A stretch of DNA of 48,556 nucleotides from a virus. Its lineage: Duplodnaviria > Heunggongvirae > Uroviricota > Caudoviricetes. Positions within the stretch are counted from its first letter, which is position 1, and the number at the start of each line of letters is the position of its first letter. The translations under genes and the position numbers were made by a program. This document shows, piece after piece, positions 3,822-37,215 of the stretch. The stretch lies in the IMG/VR virus record IMGVR_UViG_2706794697_000013. One strand, written 5' to 3'. The notes under the pieces are model-generated. The model was not told the origin of the DNA. It made no database searches and saw only the letters and a list, made by a program, of their open reading frames with translations.

Positions 3822-4473
3822 TCAGAATTTATAACCGACACCCACGATGAAACCGTCAGTGCGCCAGTCGCCACTGCCGGAGCCTTCATAAGCAATATCA
3901 ATGGCCACGGATTCGGTCGGGTTAAACTGCACGCCAGCTCCCCACGCCAGAGACGTGTTGCTGTGGCGACCGTCATCACTTCCGGTCAGCACGTCGTGCG
4001 TTTTCCCCTTGTTGTCAGTTACGCGGAGATAATCCCCGGAGAAAGTCGACACACGGCTGTAAGCCACACCCGCCATCGCATACGCGCTGAACCATTCATT
4101 CACGCGCACAGACGGCCCCGCCATTACGCTGAACCAGCGGTTACGAACGGAATCTTCATGCCAGCGGGTATCGCTGTAACGGGTCAGCTGGCGATTCTTG
4201 TCTCCTGCATAGCTGAATGACGTCACCAGCCCCAGNNNNNNNNNNNNNNNNNNNNNNNNNNNNNNNNNNNNNNNNNNNNNNNNNNNNNNNNTCCGTAAAC
4301 TCATAACGGTATTTCACGTTAATCCCGTTCAGATCATCACTGCCGGGAACGTTGGTCCGGGCATGAAGATACCCCGCGCTCAGCGTGGACTGATGTTCAG
4401 ACGCCCATGCAGGCGCACCGGATACGGCCAGACAAATGGCTGCGGACAAAATTGCTGCACAAACTTTACGCAT
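3822..4473 (-). CDS. lom: Lom-like outer membrane protein (interrupted by an N-run at 4236-4291)
   Basis: N-terminus MRKVCAAILSAAICLAVSGAPAWASEHQSTLSAGYLHA and C-terminal beta-barrel sequence as recalled for lambda Lom; two ORF-track pieces are in frame across the N-run. Confidence 0.75.
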
Positions 4474-8665: not shown

Positions 8666-9291
8666 TTGTCGGTGTACCTCTCTCGTTTACTCAGTTGTTC
8701 AGGAATATGGTGCAGCAGCTCGCCGTCACCACAGTAAATGGCGGCATGATTCGGCACCGATGAACCAAAACAGCACAGCAGCACATCGCCCGGCTGCGCC
8801 GTTGACAACGGCACCTGATACAGCCCTGTAGCCTCCAGATTATCCAGATAGAGATTCTGACCATTACGCCACCAGTCGTCCTCACGATGAAAATCTGGCA
8901 TCTCAATTCCCGCCAGATGGTAAGCGTCCCGGAACAGCGTGTAACAGTCCGTCACCCCGTGCTCAAAGCGCCGCCCGGTGAGATGCGGCACACAGCGGAA
9001 CTNNNNNNNNNNNNNNNNNNNNNNNNNNNNNNNNNNNNNNNNNNNNNNNNNNNNNNNNNNNNNNNNNNNNNNNNNNNNNNNNNNNNNNNNNNNNNNNNNN
9101 NNNNNNNNNNNNNNNNNNNNNNNNNNNNNNNNNNNNNNNNNNNNNNNNNNNNNNNNNNNNNNNNNNNNNNNNNNNNNNNNNNNNNNNNNNNNNNNNNNNN
9201 NNNNNNNNNNNNNNNNNNNNNNNNNNNNNNNNNNNNNNNNNNNNNNNNNNNNNNNNNNNNNNNNNNNNNNNNNNNNNNNNNNNNNNNGCAC
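8563..9291 (-). CDS. Tail assembly protein K-like (NlpC/P60-type); N-terminal part masked by N-run 9003-9287
   Basis: Unmasked C-terminal part (..VPNHAAIYCGDGELLHHIPEQLSKRERYTDKWQRR..) resembles lambda K as recalled; boundaries uncertain because of masking. Confidence 0.55.
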   Translation of the reverse strand: MXXXXXXXXXXXXXXXXXXXXXXXXXXXXXXXXXXXXXXXXXXXXXXXXXXXXXXXXXXXXXXXXXXXXXXXXXXXXXXXXXXXXXXXXXXXXXXXXFRCVPHLTGRRFEHGVTDCYTLFRDAYHLAGIEMPDFHREDDWWRNGQNLYLDNLEATGLYQVPLSTAQPGDVLLCCFGSSVPNHAAIYCGDGELLHHIPEQLSKRERYTDKWQRRTHSLWRHRAWHASAFTGICSDLAAASTFV

Positions 9292-26375: not shown

Positions 26376-27833
26376 TTAGGAGCGCCAAAAAAAACCTGAA
26401 AACAATATAATAACAGGATAAATTTCAAGGCGACCAAGAATCATAGCTATGCACATTAAATATTTTGCAATGTCATTAAGCACTCCGAATGACGATGCAG
26501 TAGCCCCAAAACCTAATCCCATATTATTAATACATGCAGCCACTGTTGCAAATGATGTAAGAAAATCATATCCCATACCATTTAACACCAGTATAAAAAA
26601 CACCGTGAAGAGAGTATAAAGAAAAAAGAAACTCCATACAGACCTCATTACACGATCTGTAACTATCTTCCCTCCTACATTTACACTCAACAACGCTCTG
26701 GGATGAGAAAGCTGATTTATCTCGTGTTTGCTTTGTTTGAAAAGTATAAGAAATCGAAGTGACTTAATTCCACCACAGGTTGAACCTATACATCCCCCAA
26801 AGAAACTTGACAACAGCAAAAACACTATCGTGTGCGTGGGCCAGTTTGCATAATCCTGCGTAGCTAAACCATTATCAGTGAGCATGGAGCTGGCAAGAAA
26901 AAACGAATGAATAAAACTTCCATGCAAGTCATACATACCTATATGCCAGACCTGGAAAGAGGTAACAATGATCACCCCTAAGGCTATTAACAGAAAGAAA
27001 CGAAGTTCAATATCTCTGATTAAAGGTTTTATCGTTTTTCTGCTAATAACAATATACCAAAGAGTGAAGTTGAAAGCCGATAGCAGGGAAAAAGAACCAG
27101 CCACCAGCTCAACCAAATAGTTATTAAAATATCCGATACTCTCGCTATGAGTTGAGAAACCACCAAGCGAAACTGTGGAAATCCCGTGACAAATAGCATC
27201 AAACAAAGGCATTCCTGCAAGTCTATAACAGACAATACAAGCAATACCTAATAAAGAATAAGTTATCCACAGTGTCCGTGACGTATCGGCCAGGCGGGGA
27301 GTGAGTTTGTCATCCTTAAATGGCCCCGGCATTTCTGACTGATAAAGCTTTGCACCACCAATACCCAATAATGGCAATACTGCAACCGCCAGAACAATAA
27401 CTCCTAAACCACCTATAAAATTTAACTGTGACCGATAGTACAAATATGCCCGAGGTAATGAACTAACATCATCAATTACAGTTGCTCCTGTTGTTGTTAT
27501 TCCAGAAACCCCTTCAAACAGAGCATCAATGAACGTTAAATTAAGTTCTGAGTCAATCCATAAAGGGAATGCACTAATAACAGAAAACAAAATCCAAAAC
27601 ATTACAATTATAATAAACCCATCACGGGTACGTAATTGAATGCCAGATTTCTTAGTTGTATACCACGCTCCGCCACCAATGCAAAAAAATATAACGAAAG
27701 TTATAAAGAAAACGAACAGGCTTTTTTCTTTATAAAACAATGCTACAACCATTGGTGGCAACATTGAAAGACTATAGAGCCAAACCAGGAACCCACACAT
27801 ATGAGTAACAACTCTTACATGAGATGTATTCAT
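26376..27833 (-). CDS. trkG: Trk-system potassium uptake protein TrkG
   Basis: 485 aa polytopic membrane protein from MNTSHVRVVTHMCGFLVWLYSL.., recognised as K-12 Rac TrkG; gene is visibly AT-rich. Confidence 0.85.
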   Translation of the reverse strand: MNTSHVRVVTHMCGFLVWLYSLSMLPPMVVALFYKEKSLFVFFITFVIFFCIGGGAWYTTKKSGIQLRTRDGFIIIVMFWILFSVISAFPLWIDSELNLTFIDALFEGVSGITTTGATVIDDVSSLPRAYLYYRSQLNFIGGLGVIVLAVAVLPLLGIGGAKLYQSEMPGPFKDDKLTPRLADTSRTLWITYSLLGIACIVCYRLAGMPLFDAICHGISTVSLGGFSTHSESIGYFNNYLVELVAGSFSLLSAFNFTLWYIVISRKTIKPLIRDIELRFFLLIALGVIIVTSFQVWHIGMYDLHGSFIHSFFLASSMLTDNGLATQDYANWPTHTIVFLLLSSFFGGCIGSTCGGIKSLRFLILFKQSKHEINQLSHPRALLSVNVGGKIVTDRVMRSVWSFFFLYTLFTVFFILVLNGMGYDFLTSFATVAACINNMGLGFGATASSFGVLNDIAKYLMCIAMILGRLEIYPVIILFSGFFWRS

Positions 27834-27970
27834 ATCTAAATATTCTTTCAATTATAACCACCTTGCTGCAATATTATGATTATACTGTATAAAATTTAAC
27901 TCCTCTTAGATCTTACTTCACTGTTCCTTATGAAACAATCATCAAAATGAATCATATTGTAGTTAAGATT

Positions 27971-30370: not shown

Positions 30371-30960
30371 TTTTCCTCACATATGTCATATAGTAAAGGA
30401 TTATATATACCGTTGTTTTGGACGCTCAAACAGCGAATCAGATCAAATAAAACGCACATTTGTTAACATTTACACAAAGTCTGCGTGGGATATTCTGAAA
30501 GAATATCCATAATGTGGAGAGAATCTATTGAAGTGCATGGTGCCGGGTGCCTCCCGGTGAACAAAATGTTCGTGATACCTGTCGGCGACAGAAAAGGTTA
30601 ATGGTATCACCCCACCGCACAGGGGGATTCACCATGCAGGAGTTTTCTTAGCAAACTCACTGCGCGCCCGGCAACTCCCAACCACATAAAATGCGGAGTT
30701 TGTGGCATTTATGCATATAACTCGCAGGAATTATCTTAAAAAACTGATGTCGATCCGGATTAAAAAGAAGCAGGTCATCATCAGATGACTGGAAAAAAGG
30801 AAAACAAAAAATACTCATCATACAGTTTTGATTGCAGGGATGAGCCTGCTATGCACAATATGCAGAATATAAGCAAGATAAAAATATGCAGGCATATTAT
30901 TTCGGATCTTGTTATTAACACAACCTTTTTAATAATCATTTGGCATACAATAAACCAGCC

Positions 30961-32244: not shown

Positions 32245-32954
32245 TACGCAAACTCCAGTAGTTGTGCGGCCACATTTTCAACTTCCTCCTGAGAGGAGAA
32301 TTTACGGAACAGAATCCAGTTCCACAGCACATTCAGTACAGATTTATAAACCTGCTGAAACTCGACTTCGTCCATATTCGCAAAAGCGATGGATTTTGCC
32401 CGACGCCCACGGCTACCGTCCGGATAAATATGCTCGGTGTAAAATCCGGCCTGAATGGTTACCCACTCGCGGAAAGCCTCAAACGACTTTAGCAACGCCG
32501 TATCCCGGGTTCTACGAGTCGCAACGGTGTTAAGGTATTGCTCTGCGGCATCACTCAGGGCTGGCGTGTGTTCCCGACCAACTGATTCGCACAGGTAATC
32601 AACGAAACCAGACAGCAGTTCTCGTTCGCGAGGCGTGATCGCCCCACCGACCGGAGTCCAGTAATCGAATCCCAGTTGCNNNNNNNNNNNNNNNNNNNNN
32701 NNNNNNNNNNNNNNNNNNNNNNNNNNNNNNNNNNNNNNNNNNNNNNNNNNNNNNNNNNNNNNNNNNNNNNNNNNNNNNNNNNNNNNNNNNNNNNNNNNNN
32801 NNNNNNNNNNNNNNNNNNNNNNNNNNNNNNNNNNNNNNNNNNNNNNNNNNNNNNNNNNNNNNNNNNNNNNNNNNNNNNNNNNNNNNNNNNNNNNNNNNNN
32901 NNNNNNNNNNNNNNNNNNNNNNNNNNGGTGTAAAGCCCCACATAGCATGAACAA
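32244..32954 (-). CDS. Nin-region protein (DUF1367-like), N-terminal part masked by N-run 32680-32926
   Basis: Unmasked C-terminal ~145 aa in frame with the masked stretch; lies between replication genes and ybcO-like gene. Confidence 0.4.
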   Translation of the reverse strand: MFMLCGALHXXXXXXXXXXXXXXXXXXXXXXXXXXXXXXXXXXXXXXXXXXXXXXXXXXXXXXXXXXXXXXXXXXXXXXXXXXXXXXXXXXXQLGFDYWTPVGGAITPRERELLSGFVDYLCESVGREHTPALSDAAEQYLNTVATRRTRDTALLKSFEAFREWVTIQAGFYTEHIYPDGSRGRRAKSIAFANMDEVEFQQVYKSVLNVLWNWILFRKFSSQEEVENVAAQLLEFA

Positions 32955-33128
32955 ACACTACATATCAAATAGCTGGTACAAGGATAGAAATACGACACTT
33001 ATTATTAAAAACGATTAGATAAATTACATTTTAATGTTATGCAAAAGTTCTTTTTTATCATAACATTTCAATAAAAGCATTACAGATGCAATCATCCCGT
33101 CATCATCAATTATTTAAGGTGGTTAAAC

Positions 33129-33215
33129 ATGGAAAATAACAAGTTCGCACATCTCGCTCCTTTTTTATCCGTAATCCTTTTCGCTTGTTGTTTTATATGG
33201 GCATTATTTTTATAA
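33129..33215 (+). CDS. Small hydrophobic peptide (28 aa, candidate membrane peptide)
   Basis: AAGGTGG RBS 6 nt upstream of ATG; MENNKFAHLAPFLSVILFACCFIWALFL then TAA; sits in an AT-rich non-coding stretch. Confidence 0.3.
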   Translation: MENNKFAHLAPFLSVILFACCFIWALFL

Positions 33216-33606
33216 AGTAGCCACATGATAAGTTGCTGGAATCATATTTCCCACTCAAGTCATTAACATTTGATAAGATATATCTAAAAGGACGCCTTTA
33301 CATTATTTATGCGTATATAATTTATTTATATACACAGTAAAGGTATCCTGGGAAAATATTTATCGTTAAAAAATACATCATAAATAATTAAGCTGAAATT
33401 TCAGAACACAACTAATACACACAATAAGGTTCAGTAACAGTAATCTATGTGGACTACATCGAGATTTTTTGATTAAACTTTAATAACTTATTCCTAACAC
33501 ACAGAATGCATAAACTAAAAGTAAAACAAATAGTTATACGAAAAACAACCATATTTATTCTATCTTCTCCTCTAATCAACATATCAATTATGTGTTTCAT
33601 AACAGC

Positions 33607-33646
33607 TTGACATAACCCTCCAAAAGATGCATTTTTAATGCATGTT
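33607..33646 (+). promoter_or_regulatory. Candidate promoter with NsrR-type operator upstream of the yeaR-like gene
   Basis: TTGACA at 33607-33612; AAGATGCATTT-t-TAATGCATGTT at 33624-33646 matches the 11-1-11 NsrR inverted-repeat consensus (AAGATGCATTT n AAATGCATCTT) at 20 of 22 positions. Confidence 0.55.
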
Positions 33647-33661
33647 TTGGAGGAGGTGGTT

Positions 33662-34000
33662 ATGACACACAAGAGAATTCCTAAAGATTGGGTAATCAAA
33701 CGCTCAACTCCGTTCTTCACAAAAGAGAACGTACCTTCAGCGTTATTAACACATCATAATACAGCAGCAGGTGTTTTTGGGCAGTTGTGCGTAATGGAAG
33801 GCACTGTAACATATTATGGTTTTACTGATGAGAATGCTACTGAACCGGAGATAAAAGTAGTCATTAATGCTGGCGCTTTTGCAACAAGCCCACCACAATA
33901 CTGGCACCGTGTTGAACTAAGCGATGATGCTCAGTTTAATATTAACTTTTGGGTCGCTCCAGACTTTTCGGGCGAAAAAGTCTATAGCACCAAAAAATAG
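33662..34000 (+). CDS. YeaR-like DUF1971 protein
   Basis: GGAGGAGG RBS before ATG at 33662; ..RSTPFF..GV..L.VM.G.V.Y.G..DE...EP...VI.AG.FA..PP..WH..D..FNI.F.VAP.. follows K-12 YeaR as recalled. Confidence 0.65.
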   Translation: MTHKRIPKDWVIKRSTPFFTKENVPSALLTHHNTAAGVFGQLCVMEGTVTYYGFTDENATEPEIKVVINAGAFATSPPQYWHRVELSDDAQFNINFWVAPDFSGEKVYSTKK

Positions 34001-34067: not shown

Positions 34068-34620
34068 TAAATATATTGGTTCTACATTGACAGGAGACTT
34101 CAACCATAAGAAGTAATCTGAATACTTGAGCAATAAATTTACTTAAGATTAATGAGCGCACCTTGCCGGACAAAGATAAACCAAGGTAACACCTTTTTTC
34201 TAGCCAGTATGTAATCAATCAGAAAGCCGCTCCATAAGAACAACAGCAAGACAATAAATTGCCATTACAGCCGCAATAGCCAGCGCACATTTGAGAACCA
34301 GCACGACAACCCCCTGTATTAGACGCACACCAGTCCTGATAAATATGAGGCTGTCTCGTCAGTGATTCAATACAACTATTGGGTATAGTTTCTGTGATTT
34401 TATTCTGTAGAAATGGAACACAACAACCAGTCACCACCAGCACTTCCTTAAATGCTCTAAGTCAGAAACAAGCCAACATTTTAGTCCGCTTTGAGCGATC
34501 TGCAGACATTGCTAGCAGCCTTCTGTGTGAATTCTCAGGGAGCAGGTCGGCATAGCATCACGTTGAGGCTCTTACCCTACTTGTTCACACCAACCCTAAC
34601 TCCACAGACTGATTCATAAA

Positions 34621-35622
34621 TTAGTAATCTGCGTGTTTCGCACTTTTCAGAAATGCTTTCATATTTTCATTAGGTCGCTCAATTTCGAAGTTACTTCCAT
34701 ATAACTCTTGTAATTTTGGCCATAACTTACTTAATAACCCTCTCCTGCGATAAAATGGATGTATCCAAACGGTAGATAGGTACGGAGAATTTGCATTTGA
34801 ATTGTTTATTGTGACCAGCCCAACTAAACATTGTCGATAACCACTATTATCCATTGATTGTATTTCTTCGACGAATGGATACGCGATTACATCAGTCCAA
34901 CCATGATCGGTTGTATCCCATTGCATTCCGTCATGACATTCCTTCGACTGATAGCGGCGTAAAGCTACACACGCGAGCTTTTGCCAATCTGGAGAATTAA
35001 TTGTGATCTCTTCATCGTATGACGCGCCTATTGGAGCGGGTATTGGTCTGATTAATCCAGCATGGCATTCATCATAGAACTTCATGTTTCCCTCAGAAAC
35101 GTTGTGTACGTTGGGTTGCTCCATGTGTGCGCCATTCAAAAATAGCTCTGATAGTAGTGTATCTACACTGTAATCTTTATTGATTATTGTCGGCTTAGAG
35201 TTTTTCTTATTAAGGCCGCGAGTAACGATTTTTTGATCAATGTTAACAACATGGAATAATCCGTCGGGGAGGCTAGCGAACCACGATGGGGCATCGGACC
35301 AGAATAGCATGCCTTTTGTACTTCTTAAGAGTTTAATTAAGTTAATACAAGCTTCTTCACTAGTCTTGCCGTTGATGCGAAGTATGTTAGGACTAAAGTA
35401 ATATTCATCCATATCAGGGAATGCAGCTTCGCAAAACTCCTGTACATAATTTAGCACCTGGATTCTACAGAGATCATCATAGCTGGTAATAACTAAGGGG
35501 GTATCTTCATTACTATTATGATTATCAATAATGCAATCTATAGCGAGACTTACTGCTTTGCGTATCACTTCAGTTGAATCTAACGACTCTAAAAATTTTG
35601 TCTTTCGTGTGCGAATATCCAT
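34621..35622 (-). CDS. Hypothetical protein B (333 aa) with GNAT-like C-terminal motif; second gene of AT-rich cassette
   Basis: ATG at 35622, 15 nt after protein A stop; C-terminal ..LSTVWIHPFYRRRGLLSKLWPKLQELYG.. resembles GNAT motif A; AT-rich. Confidence 0.6.
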   Translation of the reverse strand: MDIRTRKTKFLESLDSTEVIRKAVSLAIDCIIDNHNSNEDTPLVITSYDDLCRIQVLNYVQEFCEAAFPDMDEYYFSPNILRINGKTSEEACINLIKLLRSTKGMLFWSDAPSWFASLPDGLFHVVNIDQKIVTRGLNKKNSKPTIINKDYSVDTLLSELFLNGAHMEQPNVHNVSEGNMKFYDECHAGLIRPIPAPIGASYDEEITINSPDWQKLACVALRRYQSKECHDGMQWDTTDHGWTDVIAYPFVEEIQSMDNSGYRQCLVGLVTINNSNANSPYLSTVWIHPFYRRRGLLSKLWPKLQELYGSNFEIERPNENMKAFLKSAKHADY

Positions 35623-35637
35623 GTATGACCTGCGCTA

Positions 35638-36660
35638 TTAAAATTCATGAATGAACGGTTTGTCATCTGGTTGCAAAATGGTGGTTTTATTCGTTGCTAC
35701 ATTTAAACTGTTGTAGAGCATAATTGCCAGGTTCGATGCATTTTCAATCAGCGTTTCAAGATCCTGGTCTGTAATCACTACGAGGTTCCCTTCTTTATCC
35801 TTTCCACCACGATGCACTAAGTGATTTCGATTGAGGGTTGCCAATTCAATAGCTTCTATCGGACAGTCTTTTTGTACTTTTATATCGAATGTAGCTTCAT
35901 AGCGGTCGATTACCTTTTTAGTGCTATGCCAGCTTGCACTGATCAAGTGTTCCTTGATTGACCTGATTAGCTCTCCCCTAATTTTCTCGATGGGTTCACC
36001 CTTGAAAGGCAACGCAGCAATATCTTTGCTTACTTTAAATTCAGTCTTACCTTTTTCTATACAATTGGCTATGTAGACATCATCTTTCTCTATAGAATTA
36101 ATGAATAGCTCAACATAAAGCGTTTCCAAAGCTGTAATAACATTCGTGTAGAGCAAACTAAGCAAGTGGTTTTTTTGCTGTTGTTCAGTTTTATCTTTTG
36201 CAAGTTTTTTTATTTTATCGATATTATCAATGAATTTTAAATACGGATTACCGGAAGACGTTACAGCGTCGTAGATATCATCATCGTACCAATCATCTAT
36301 ATTATTTGAGTTTCCAGACCAGTCAAAACATTGTGTTTGTAATTCATCTACTAATTCCTCAATATACTCAGATTTAACATATTGACCGAAGATGGATTGT
36401 AGTTCTTCGCTCGCATCATACGGCCCGCCATATATGTAAGCATAGCCACCTTCTCTACTTTCATACGGACAAGCATTTGCCGGATCTTCAAAGTTTTCAA
36501 AGAACCAGTTTTTCATTACTTCGAGTTGATCTTTTTTGCTTATGTATTTTAAAGATTTTAGTGGAACTTTCTTTCCATTAACCTCGAAAACAATTTTCAC
36601 GATGTAACGCTCCCTTGTATCAATTGCGCAACTATTATACCACAGCGAAATACAGGGCAT
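35638..36660 (-). CDS. Hypothetical protein A (340 aa) with C-terminal HEPN-type Rx4H motif; first gene of AT-rich cassette
   Basis: GGAGG RBS 6 nt upstream of ATG at 36660 (ORF track extends 23 codons further); C-terminal ..ELATLNRNHLVHRGG.. fits R-x4-H; about 36 percent GC by hand count. Confidence 0.6.
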   Translation of the reverse strand: MPCISLWYNSCAIDTRERYIVKIVFEVNGKKVPLKSLKYISKKDQLEVMKNWFFENFEDPANACPYESREGGYAYIYGGPYDASEELQSIFGQYVKSEYIEELVDELQTQCFDWSGNSNNIDDWYDDDIYDAVTSSGNPYLKFIDNIDKIKKLAKDKTEQQQKNHLLSLLYTNVITALETLYVELFINSIEKDDVYIANCIEKGKTEFKVSKDIAALPFKGEPIEKIRGELIRSIKEHLISASWHSTKKVIDRYEATFDIKVQKDCPIEAIELATLNRNHLVHRGGKDKEGNLVVITDQDLETLIENASNLAIMLYNSLNVATNKTTILQPDDKPFIHEF

Positions 36661-36798
36661 AACCTGCCTCCTTAAACTAACATACCATGAGCCAGCAATG
36701 TCCGCTATTGGCACAAAGCGGACAACCACGCTAGCTCTCCCCTGTGCCAGAAAAATGTCAATTTACATATGAACTAATGCTCTTTGATCTAGTAACGT

Positions 36799-37215
36799 CT
36801 ATAAATACCGAAGATTTCCTTGATAAAATGCCAGTACACGTTTCATAACTTCACTCTTCCGGCACTCGCGACAGATTATGTTCTGACGCCTGTCATAGCG
36901 GCGTATTTCTCCGTCTGGTAATGACCAGATAAGGTCAGGATCAACCACAACCGTTTTTTTCACCTTTGCCCTGGATAGTTTTTTGCGGGCGTTTTTCCAA
37001 TCCTTACGAGCCTGTTCAGACGGGAATAACCCATAGCCAGAGTTGTATACATCGCCACTGGCAACCAACTCTCTGGCAAGAATGCTCATCAGATATCTTG
37101 TCGCACCTGTCTTGGCCTCCAGTTGCCTTAACGTCTCGCGCCCACTCTGGCGTACCAACTCAACAACCTGCTCCTTAATTTTTTCACGCTCTTCCTGTGT
37201 AAAAACTTTTGCCAT
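36799..37215 (-). CDS. Hypothetical protein (138 aa)
   Basis: ATG at 37215 directly after the upstream stop; basic C-terminal half with CRECRK; family not recognised. Confidence 0.45.
   Translation of the reverse strand: MAKVFTQEEREKIKEQVVELVRQSGRETLRQLEAKTGATRYLMSILARELVASGDVYNSGYGLFPSEQARKDWKNARKKLSRAKVKKTVVVDPDLIWSLPDGEIRRYDRRQNIICRECRKSEVMKRVLAFYQGNLRYL

Follow-up and report, generated by a model that had tools for sequence, protein, structure and literature searches.

Does the low-GC gene pair that lies between the replication module and the nin/Q region of a tailed-phage genome represent a new anti-phage or toxin-immunity system? The window, i.e., the whole stretch of 48,556 nucleotides (nt) of the IMG/VR record IMGVR_UViG_2706794697_000013 (Caudoviricetes), harbors in this position two minus-strand open reading frames (ORFs) separated by a 15-nt gap and referred to here as A (35638-36660 in its longer reading) and B (34621-35622). 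An earlier note, made from the sequence alone, had recognized in them a HEPN-motif protein linked to a GNAT-like protein, had found no named family for the pair, and had proposed it as a candidate for a new defense system or for a toxin with its immunity partner. The cassette is, in fact, already known, having been named, cloned, and mutationally dissected as DS-33. Very probably, it is the DS-33 anti-phage cargo of a Rac-like prophage, in which the HEPN protein A is the working part and B a separate accessory.

The identification concerns both proteins. A is identical to WP_014639476.1, the accession that corresponds to the call of the Prokaryotic Genome Annotation Pipeline (PGAP) for this gene, over 320/320 amino acids (aa), and B is identical to WP_000354965.1 at 332 of its 333 residues, the sole change being P289 in the window versus L289 in the published clone. 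These two accessions make up DS-33 (working name 'GNAT') in the DefensePredictor study (Science 2026, PMC13092281), and the gene order and spacing of DS-33 equal those of the window cassette, so that the pair is neither unplaced nor new. According to the tables of that study, DS-33 derives from an E. coli strain of a mainly ECOR panel and is labelled as a replicated, validated, predicted-novel defense system. In that paper, DS-33 appears in the tables only, the main text giving neither a discussion nor a mechanism; searches of literature text for the WP accessions or for HEPN together with GNAT gave no match, and DS-33 surfaced solely in supplementary tables.

As reported there, each system was placed, together with its native promoter, on a low-copy plasmid in MG1655 and tested against 24 phages. 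Table S7 of PMC13092281 lists, for the five retested phages, the -log10 efficiency of plating (EOP) in two replicates per construct. The values tabulated for the wild type are 3.8/2.6 for T7, 3.3/2.4 for T3, 4.0/2.0 for Bas67, 5.0/5.9 for Bas26, and 0.8/0.1 for T5; the cloned locus, thus, lowers the plating of T7, T3, Bas67, and Bas26 by 2-6 logs. With the HEPN deletion, all five phages fall between -0.5 and 0.5, and with the R258A substitution they all remain at or below 0.8, whereas the GNAT deletion gives 4.8/4.3 (T7), 3.3/3.3 (T3), 4.0/3.3 (Bas67), 5.0/4.9 (Bas26), and 1.7/0.5 (T5). The published R258 is the arginine of the RNHLVH stretch of A. In these tabulated constructs, A and its catalytic arginine are needed for defense and B is not; in other words, in the published assay, the HEPN protein is necessary, and it is sufficient without B. 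If anything, the GNAT-deletion construct is slightly more protective, a difference that is within assay noise. The defense function conjectured in the earlier note is therefore borne out, and the cloning, phage panel, gene deletions, and arginine-to-alanine mutant that it had suggested are already to be found in the published work.

As regards protein A, translation most probably begins at the GTG at 36600 (320 aa) rather than at the ATG at 36660, which lies behind a GGAGG and gives 340 aa (the longest ORF of A reaches 36729). This is because the homologs begin at the corresponding MK-VF, because the predicted model shows disorder over residues 1-17 of the 340-aa form (predicted local distance difference test, pLDDT, <50), because the ORF is limited to at most 320 aa in six diverged cassettes, and because 320 aa is the length called by PGAP and used in the published clone. 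The idea that each gene has its own ribosome-binding site (RBS) holds only in part: the GGAGG before the ATG of A exists, but the GTG start preceded by GGGAG is likelier, and the RBS of B is weak. The AlphaFold2 (AF2) model of A (pLDDT 86.8) contains the four-helix up-and-down HEPN fold. The RNHLVH stretch (aa 278-283 of the 340-aa form, window positions 35829-35812) is not due to chance, since none of R278, H283, R284, E179, and W244-H245 (all in the 340-aa numbering) varies among 64 homologs; the assignment of A to HEPN proteins on the basis of its Rx4-6H motif is hence upheld.

A second domain, HEPN/RES-NTD1, precedes the catalytic one and is presumed to act as a sensor or regulatory domain. 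At E ≤ 0.01, HEPN_RES_NTD1 (PF18870) is matched by 60/64 homologs of A and HEPN_RiboL-PSP (PF18735) by 32/64 (best 7e-11); the former domain also occurs alone, joined to other C-termini, in Alphaproteobacteria. The architecture joining HEPN/RES-NTD1 to a HEPN domain of the MAE_18760/RiboL-PSP clade, which is the same two-domain layout as in A, was described by Anantharaman et al. 2013 (PMC3710099); that description is computational only and includes neither a partner gene nor a phenotype. This clade, a distant relative of AbiD/AbiF, is predicted to have catalytic activity. Searches of NCBIfam and of PDB sequences returned no significant match for A or B, PADLOC-DB v2.0.0 returned matches to A only at E ≥ 0.01 and none at all to B, and in PHROGs the two proteins match families of unknown function only (phrog_17908 and phrog_16994).

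On these grounds, A is one polypeptide carrying an N-terminal HEPN/RES-NTD1 domain and a C-terminal predicted HEPN ribonuclease of the RiboL-PSP/MAE_18760 clade. Judging from the family, it would be kept inactive in uninfected cells until its N-terminal domain senses infection. HEPN domains work as dimers with a composite R-x4-H site; those of A might then pair to form such an active site, and the active protein would cut RNA (tRNA, mRNA, or rRNA), stopping translation and phage production. The ribonuclease role is indirectly supported by the published R258A mutant, which loses defense in the tabulated assay. B, in turn, is a module of its own, made up of two domains and having a divergent GNAT fold; it is very probably not the antitoxin of A and most likely accompanies it as an accessory, either independent or modulatory.

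Other defense proteins are built in a comparable way. ApeA, DS-11 CBS-HEPN, and DARNA resemble A in that a single polypeptide joins a domain for regulation or sensing to an R-x4-H HEPN nuclease, the catalytic residues of which are needed for defense, although their sensor domains and domain order are unlike those of A; in DARNA, for example, the HEPN domain is N-terminal and the protein is switched on by single-stranded DNA that the phage SSB presents, whereas in A this domain is C-terminal. A remote HHblits match of A (probability 96.1, coverage 0.55, as given in a DefensePredictor table) is component B of PD-T4-2, a RiboL-PSP-HEPN protein belonging to a validated E. coli defense system (Vassallo et al. 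2022); none of the PADLOC PD-T4-2 models match A at E ≤ 1.

The predicted structure of protein B contains the GNAT alpha/beta fold, and its motif-A-like stretch (Table 1) is not a chance resemblance, since R292 is invariant in 45 homologs; the GNAT-like character suspected earlier is thus confirmed. The best structural matches of B include the protein acetyltransferases alpha-TAT, ESCO1, NatD, HAT1, and MYST. In Pfam, B scores 19.9 bits against Acetyltransf_1, below the gathering score of 20.7, and 17/45 of its homologs match this family at E ≤ 0.01. G295, in the CoA-binding motif, is present in B itself but gives way to R, Q, or E in several of its homologs, and the last G/A position is occupied by L, so that the motif (Q/R-x-x-G-x-G/A) appears degenerate from the alignment. 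The N-terminal domain of B has no Pfam, NCBIfam, or PDB sequence match, and Foldseek did not place it against the PDB, the long alignments with HAT1 having a template modelling (TM) score of ~0.25. That it might be a second, tandem or duplicated, GNAT domain was ruled out (hhalign probability 0.3%). In a profile search of a library of 1.84 billion representative proteins, this domain was confined to the B family, which comprises only about ten full-length clusters; the same search retrieved a wider set of standalone proteins of ~160 aa homologous to the C-terminal domain of B (P0192-P0224). These share the S-P-x-W-Q, RRY, and W-I-H-P-F-x-R motifs, and most of them have no Pfam match. A scan of viral contigs for the standalone relatives gave the same E. 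coli prophages and one weak match only.

How the two proteins relate to each other may be judged from their distribution. If A were a constitutively toxic HEPN ribonuclease neutralized by B (e.g., by acetylation), in the manner of HepT/MntA, the pair would be a toxin-immunity or toxin-antitoxin module, as the earlier note had surmised. HEPN toxins neutralized by a modifying enzyme are indeed known, the two genes are closely linked within a single operon, keep a constant 15-nt spacer, and co-diverge, and the GNAT deletion, which defends equally or slightly better (up to +1.7 log, with T7), is compatible with B damping A. However, the GNAT-deletion construct is viable and protective, and full-length, motif-bearing relatives of A (at most 76% identity) occur at 50 loci (L004-L053) in many phyla, where B is never present and no other conserved partner accompanies them; clustering of the neighbors at 78 loci disclosed no recurrent partner, not even a small one. 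B also persists without A (L101, L102, L123, and L134-L147). In three of these loci, belonging to other Enterobacterales (L101 7817-9075, L102 6380-7690, and L123 1422-2682; 86% amino-acid and ~90% nucleotide identity), A has been precisely deleted and the 5' leader of the cassette is joined to the last ~80 nt of A; one A-deleted, B-only locus sits just downstream of PD-Lambda-4_A. Among the E. coli carriers of the cassette, strain SF-173 has an IS1 inside B and GENOMIC23-002 a frameshifted B, in both cases with A intact, and in B20123 A is truncated by IS1 and B is intact. Since solo loci and strains with either gene broken exist, neither gene needs the other for tolerance, and the toxin-immunity pair, already largely refuted, is very hard to credit. 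B differs from the partner in HepT/MntA (HEPN-MNT) in that its fold is that of a GNAT and not of a nucleotidyltransferase, and in being unneeded for viability or defense. It has the GNAT fold in common with TacT/AtaT/KacT, i.e., the GNAT toxins with DUF1778 antitoxins, but it is twice as large, with a unique N-terminal domain, no DUF1778 partner, and no family-model match, and it gives no sign of toxicity, since it persists alone.

Rearranged copies of the cassette occur elsewhere as well. On the Providencia rettgeri plasmid AP025671.1 (3337-5302), A is in three pieces and B (85% identical) is intact. In a degraded prophage (L106 7644-8606, protein P0148), a DnaC-like gene is fused in frame to residue 133 of B by a deletion that removes DUF1627, DUF977, A, and the start of B, a type of deletion seen in some degraded prophages.

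In agreement with the defense role, the solo genes lie near other defense genes, namely ApeA-like HEPN, AbiJ-NTD3, SIR2, PD-T7-5, PD-Lambda-4_A, PD-T4-3, McrBC, PD-Lambda-1, CBASS, restriction-modification (R-M), and PDC-S06/PrrC-like ATPase genes. A possibility that we regard as rather doubtful is that B is an independent single-gene conflict module (for defense or counter-defense) merely sharing the cassette with A. It would agree with the distant homologs of B, which are solitary in defense islands and adjoin PDC-S06/PrrC-like ATPase, CBASS, R-M, PD-Lambda-1, and HerA genes, with the settings of the standalone GNAT-domain relatives (behind mor in a Mu-like phage, within an integrative element, and adjacent to a PIN_12 protein; L184, L185, and L188), and with the A-deleted derivatives, which keep the leader and B. 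Yet, in the tabulated assays, the HEPN-deleted construct, which still carries B (in its P289L form), gives no protection against the five retested phages; the DefensePredictor log-odds listed in PMC13092281 are 1.08 for B versus 9.45 for A; and no phenotype is on record for any member of the B family.

The P289L difference, as read from the two sequences, is a new point of this analysis and bears on a further interpretation, namely that B is a functional partner of A that the published test missed, either because P289L is crippled or because the relevant phages were not in the panel. P289 is invariant in 44/44 homologs of B and in 22/22 of the standalone relatives. The 61 nt around codon 289 of the window are matched at ≥99% by 209/209 complete E. 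coli genomes holding the segment; therefore, none of them carries P289L. That the published test overlooked such a partner is unlikely in our judgment, and it is equally improbable that native B tunes the threshold of A or widens its range, e.g., by acetylating A itself or a host or phage protein. Both ideas would fit the co-divergence of A and B with a fixed spacer, their movement between replicons as one unit, and the protein acetyltransferases among the top structural matches of B. Against them stand the lack of direct evidence for an interaction between A and B, the relatives of B at ≤56% identity, which are never paired with A, the glycine of the CoA-binding R-x-x-G-x-G/A motif, which is not conserved in the B family, and the lineages, three in number, in which A was precisely deleted and B kept.

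Returning to A as the working part and B as a separate accessory, some points also weigh against this reading. A itself reaches only 21.8 bits against PF18870 (E 2.5e-4), below the cut-off of 27.4, and does not match PF18735 at E ≤ 1. Moreover, in the sub-lineage of this cassette, the two proteins diverge together (their identity falling from 100% to 83% for A and to 78% for B) and the spacer is of 15 nt in all intact pairs but one, which argues for some functional coupling. Lastly, the dispensability of B may not extend to the native allele, since the published B carries P289L at an invariant residue.

The cassette behaves as a unit. Its A gene has a GC content of 36.1% and its B gene of 39.1%, whereas the window as a whole reaches 47.2% and the replication genes immediately upstream 50-55%, in agreement with the low-GC segment between richer flanks that had been pointed out. 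The mobile unit spans 2,241 bp (34484-36724), which differs slightly from the proposed 34621-36800; the same ends recur on a conjugative IncF plasmid and a phage-plasmid, in a Serratia island adjoining McrBC, and on several metagenome contigs. They consist of 33-nt imperfect inverted repeats, each containing a GTCCGC-N12-GCGGAC hairpin. Wherever the cassette occurs, the leader upstream of A is conserved along with it and presumably contains the cassette's own promoter; a scan for consensus sigma-70 promoters found none in it, and the numbers of sites from consensus promoter and terminator scans did not exceed those of shuffled controls. The cassette contains no transposase. A classical cut-and-paste transposon was considered and is unsupported, no target-site duplication being visible at the cassette ends.

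Table 1. Features of the DS-33 cassette and of its boundaries (window coordinates).
Feature	Position	Strand	Remarks
5' boundary repeat GTCCGCTTTGTGCCAATAGCGGACATTGCTGGC	36691..36723	-	Hairpin GTCCGC-N12-GCGGAC; cassette homology begins here
Leader upstream of A	36601..36690	-	Presumed GGGAG RBS for the GTG start
Gene A (DS-33A)	35638..36600	-	320 aa from GTG; 340-aa reading from ATG 36660
N-terminal HEPN/RES-NTD1 domain of A	36256..36600	-	~aa 1-115 of the 320-aa form; PF18870
HEPN domain of A	35677..36246	-	~aa 119-308 of the 320-aa form
Catalytic motif R-N-H-L-V-H-R of A	35809..35829	-	R258...H263-R264 (320-aa numbering), R278...H283-R284 (340-aa numbering)
Gene B (DS-33B)	34621..35622	-	333 aa; AF2 pLDDT 90.6
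N-terminal alpha/beta domain of B	35113..35622	-	aa 1-170; no recognisable family
GNAT-fold domain of B	34624..35100	-	aa 175-333
Motif-A-like VWIHPFYRRRGLLSKLW of B	34720-34770	-	aa 285-301
P289 codon of B	34756-34758	-	Inside the GNAT-fold domain
3' boundary repeat GTCCGCTTTGAGCGATCTGCAGACATTGCTAGC (+ strand reading)	34484..34516	+	Inverted partner of 36691-36723

The boundary element is not restricted to this cassette. Other Rac/Qin-like prophages (L190 6001, 7217; L191 6001; L192 6001) have related single copies of the motif ~100 nt downstream of their DUF977 gene and carry differing cargo, i.e., a RelA/SpoT-domain protein, a DUF4209 protein, or unannotated genes, and in the K-12 Qin prophage a copy lies upstream of relBE, inside 'ydfV' (L189 3501-3533). 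At the permissive threshold of E ≤ 10, blastn located the 33-mer in 4,896 places in 3,522/5,426 E. coli genomes. These copies suggest that the interval between DUF977 and hokD-rem-ydfU-ydfT is a hotspot of variable cargo in which a common boundary element serves as punctuation; both the hairpin inverted-repeat boundaries and the proposed cargo hotspot downstream of the DUF977 gene are new in this analysis.

A Rac-like prophage identical to that of the window is present in E. coli FORC_081. According to its RefSeq annotation, the genes are arranged in the order intR-xisR-recET-kilR-sieB, repressor genes, ydaT-ydaU-DnaC-DUF1627-DUF977, A, B, DUF1971, DUF1367, DUF1364, DUF1133, and lysis genes, which confirms the location between the replication module and the nin/Q region. 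The cassette is carried by 211/5,426 complete E. coli genomes (~4%), including UTI89, S88, APEC O1, and the type strain. It is absent from deposited phage genomes, where A has three weak matches only, all of them in metagenomic phage records.

Other features of the window deserve mention. Beside the cassette, positions 32930-33600 are very AT-rich (22-32% GC) and devoid of long ORFs, and they adjoin a plus-strand DUF1971 gene at 33638-34000; together, they are likely another foreign insert. Masked runs of N occupy 4236-4291, 9003-9287, and 32680-32926, the last of which interrupts the region of the DUF1367-like gene, immediately to the left of the cassette. Between the Q-like and lysis regions, there is an Rfam match to the small RNA STnc100 (30481-30667, minus strand, 86.6 bits, E 6e-18), and the minus-strand ORF at 26376-27851, to judge from where it lies in the identical prophage with annotation, corresponds to trkG, which encodes a potassium transporter and is known as Rac cargo.

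On the whole, the earlier proposal is partly supported: what it had observed is confirmed, and its interpretation is partly right, being correct as to the folds and the defense function, and incorrect as to the novelty and the toxin-partner logic. Little is added in terms of discovery, DS-33 having been named, cloned, and dissected, and being present in ~4% of complete E. coli genomes. The residual interest is modest and concerns the role of B, the sensing by A, and the way in which a cassette without a transposase moves between prophages, plasmids, and islands. There is a small chance that native B, with its P289, has acetyltransferase activity through which the HEPN defense is tuned or extended, and that the cassette belongs to a large set of exchangeable cargo units with a shared hairpin repeat as their boundary, at a hotspot downstream of the DUF977 gene in Rac/Qin-like prophages; if this were true, the published dispensability of the GNAT protein would reflect a crippled private allele, P289L.

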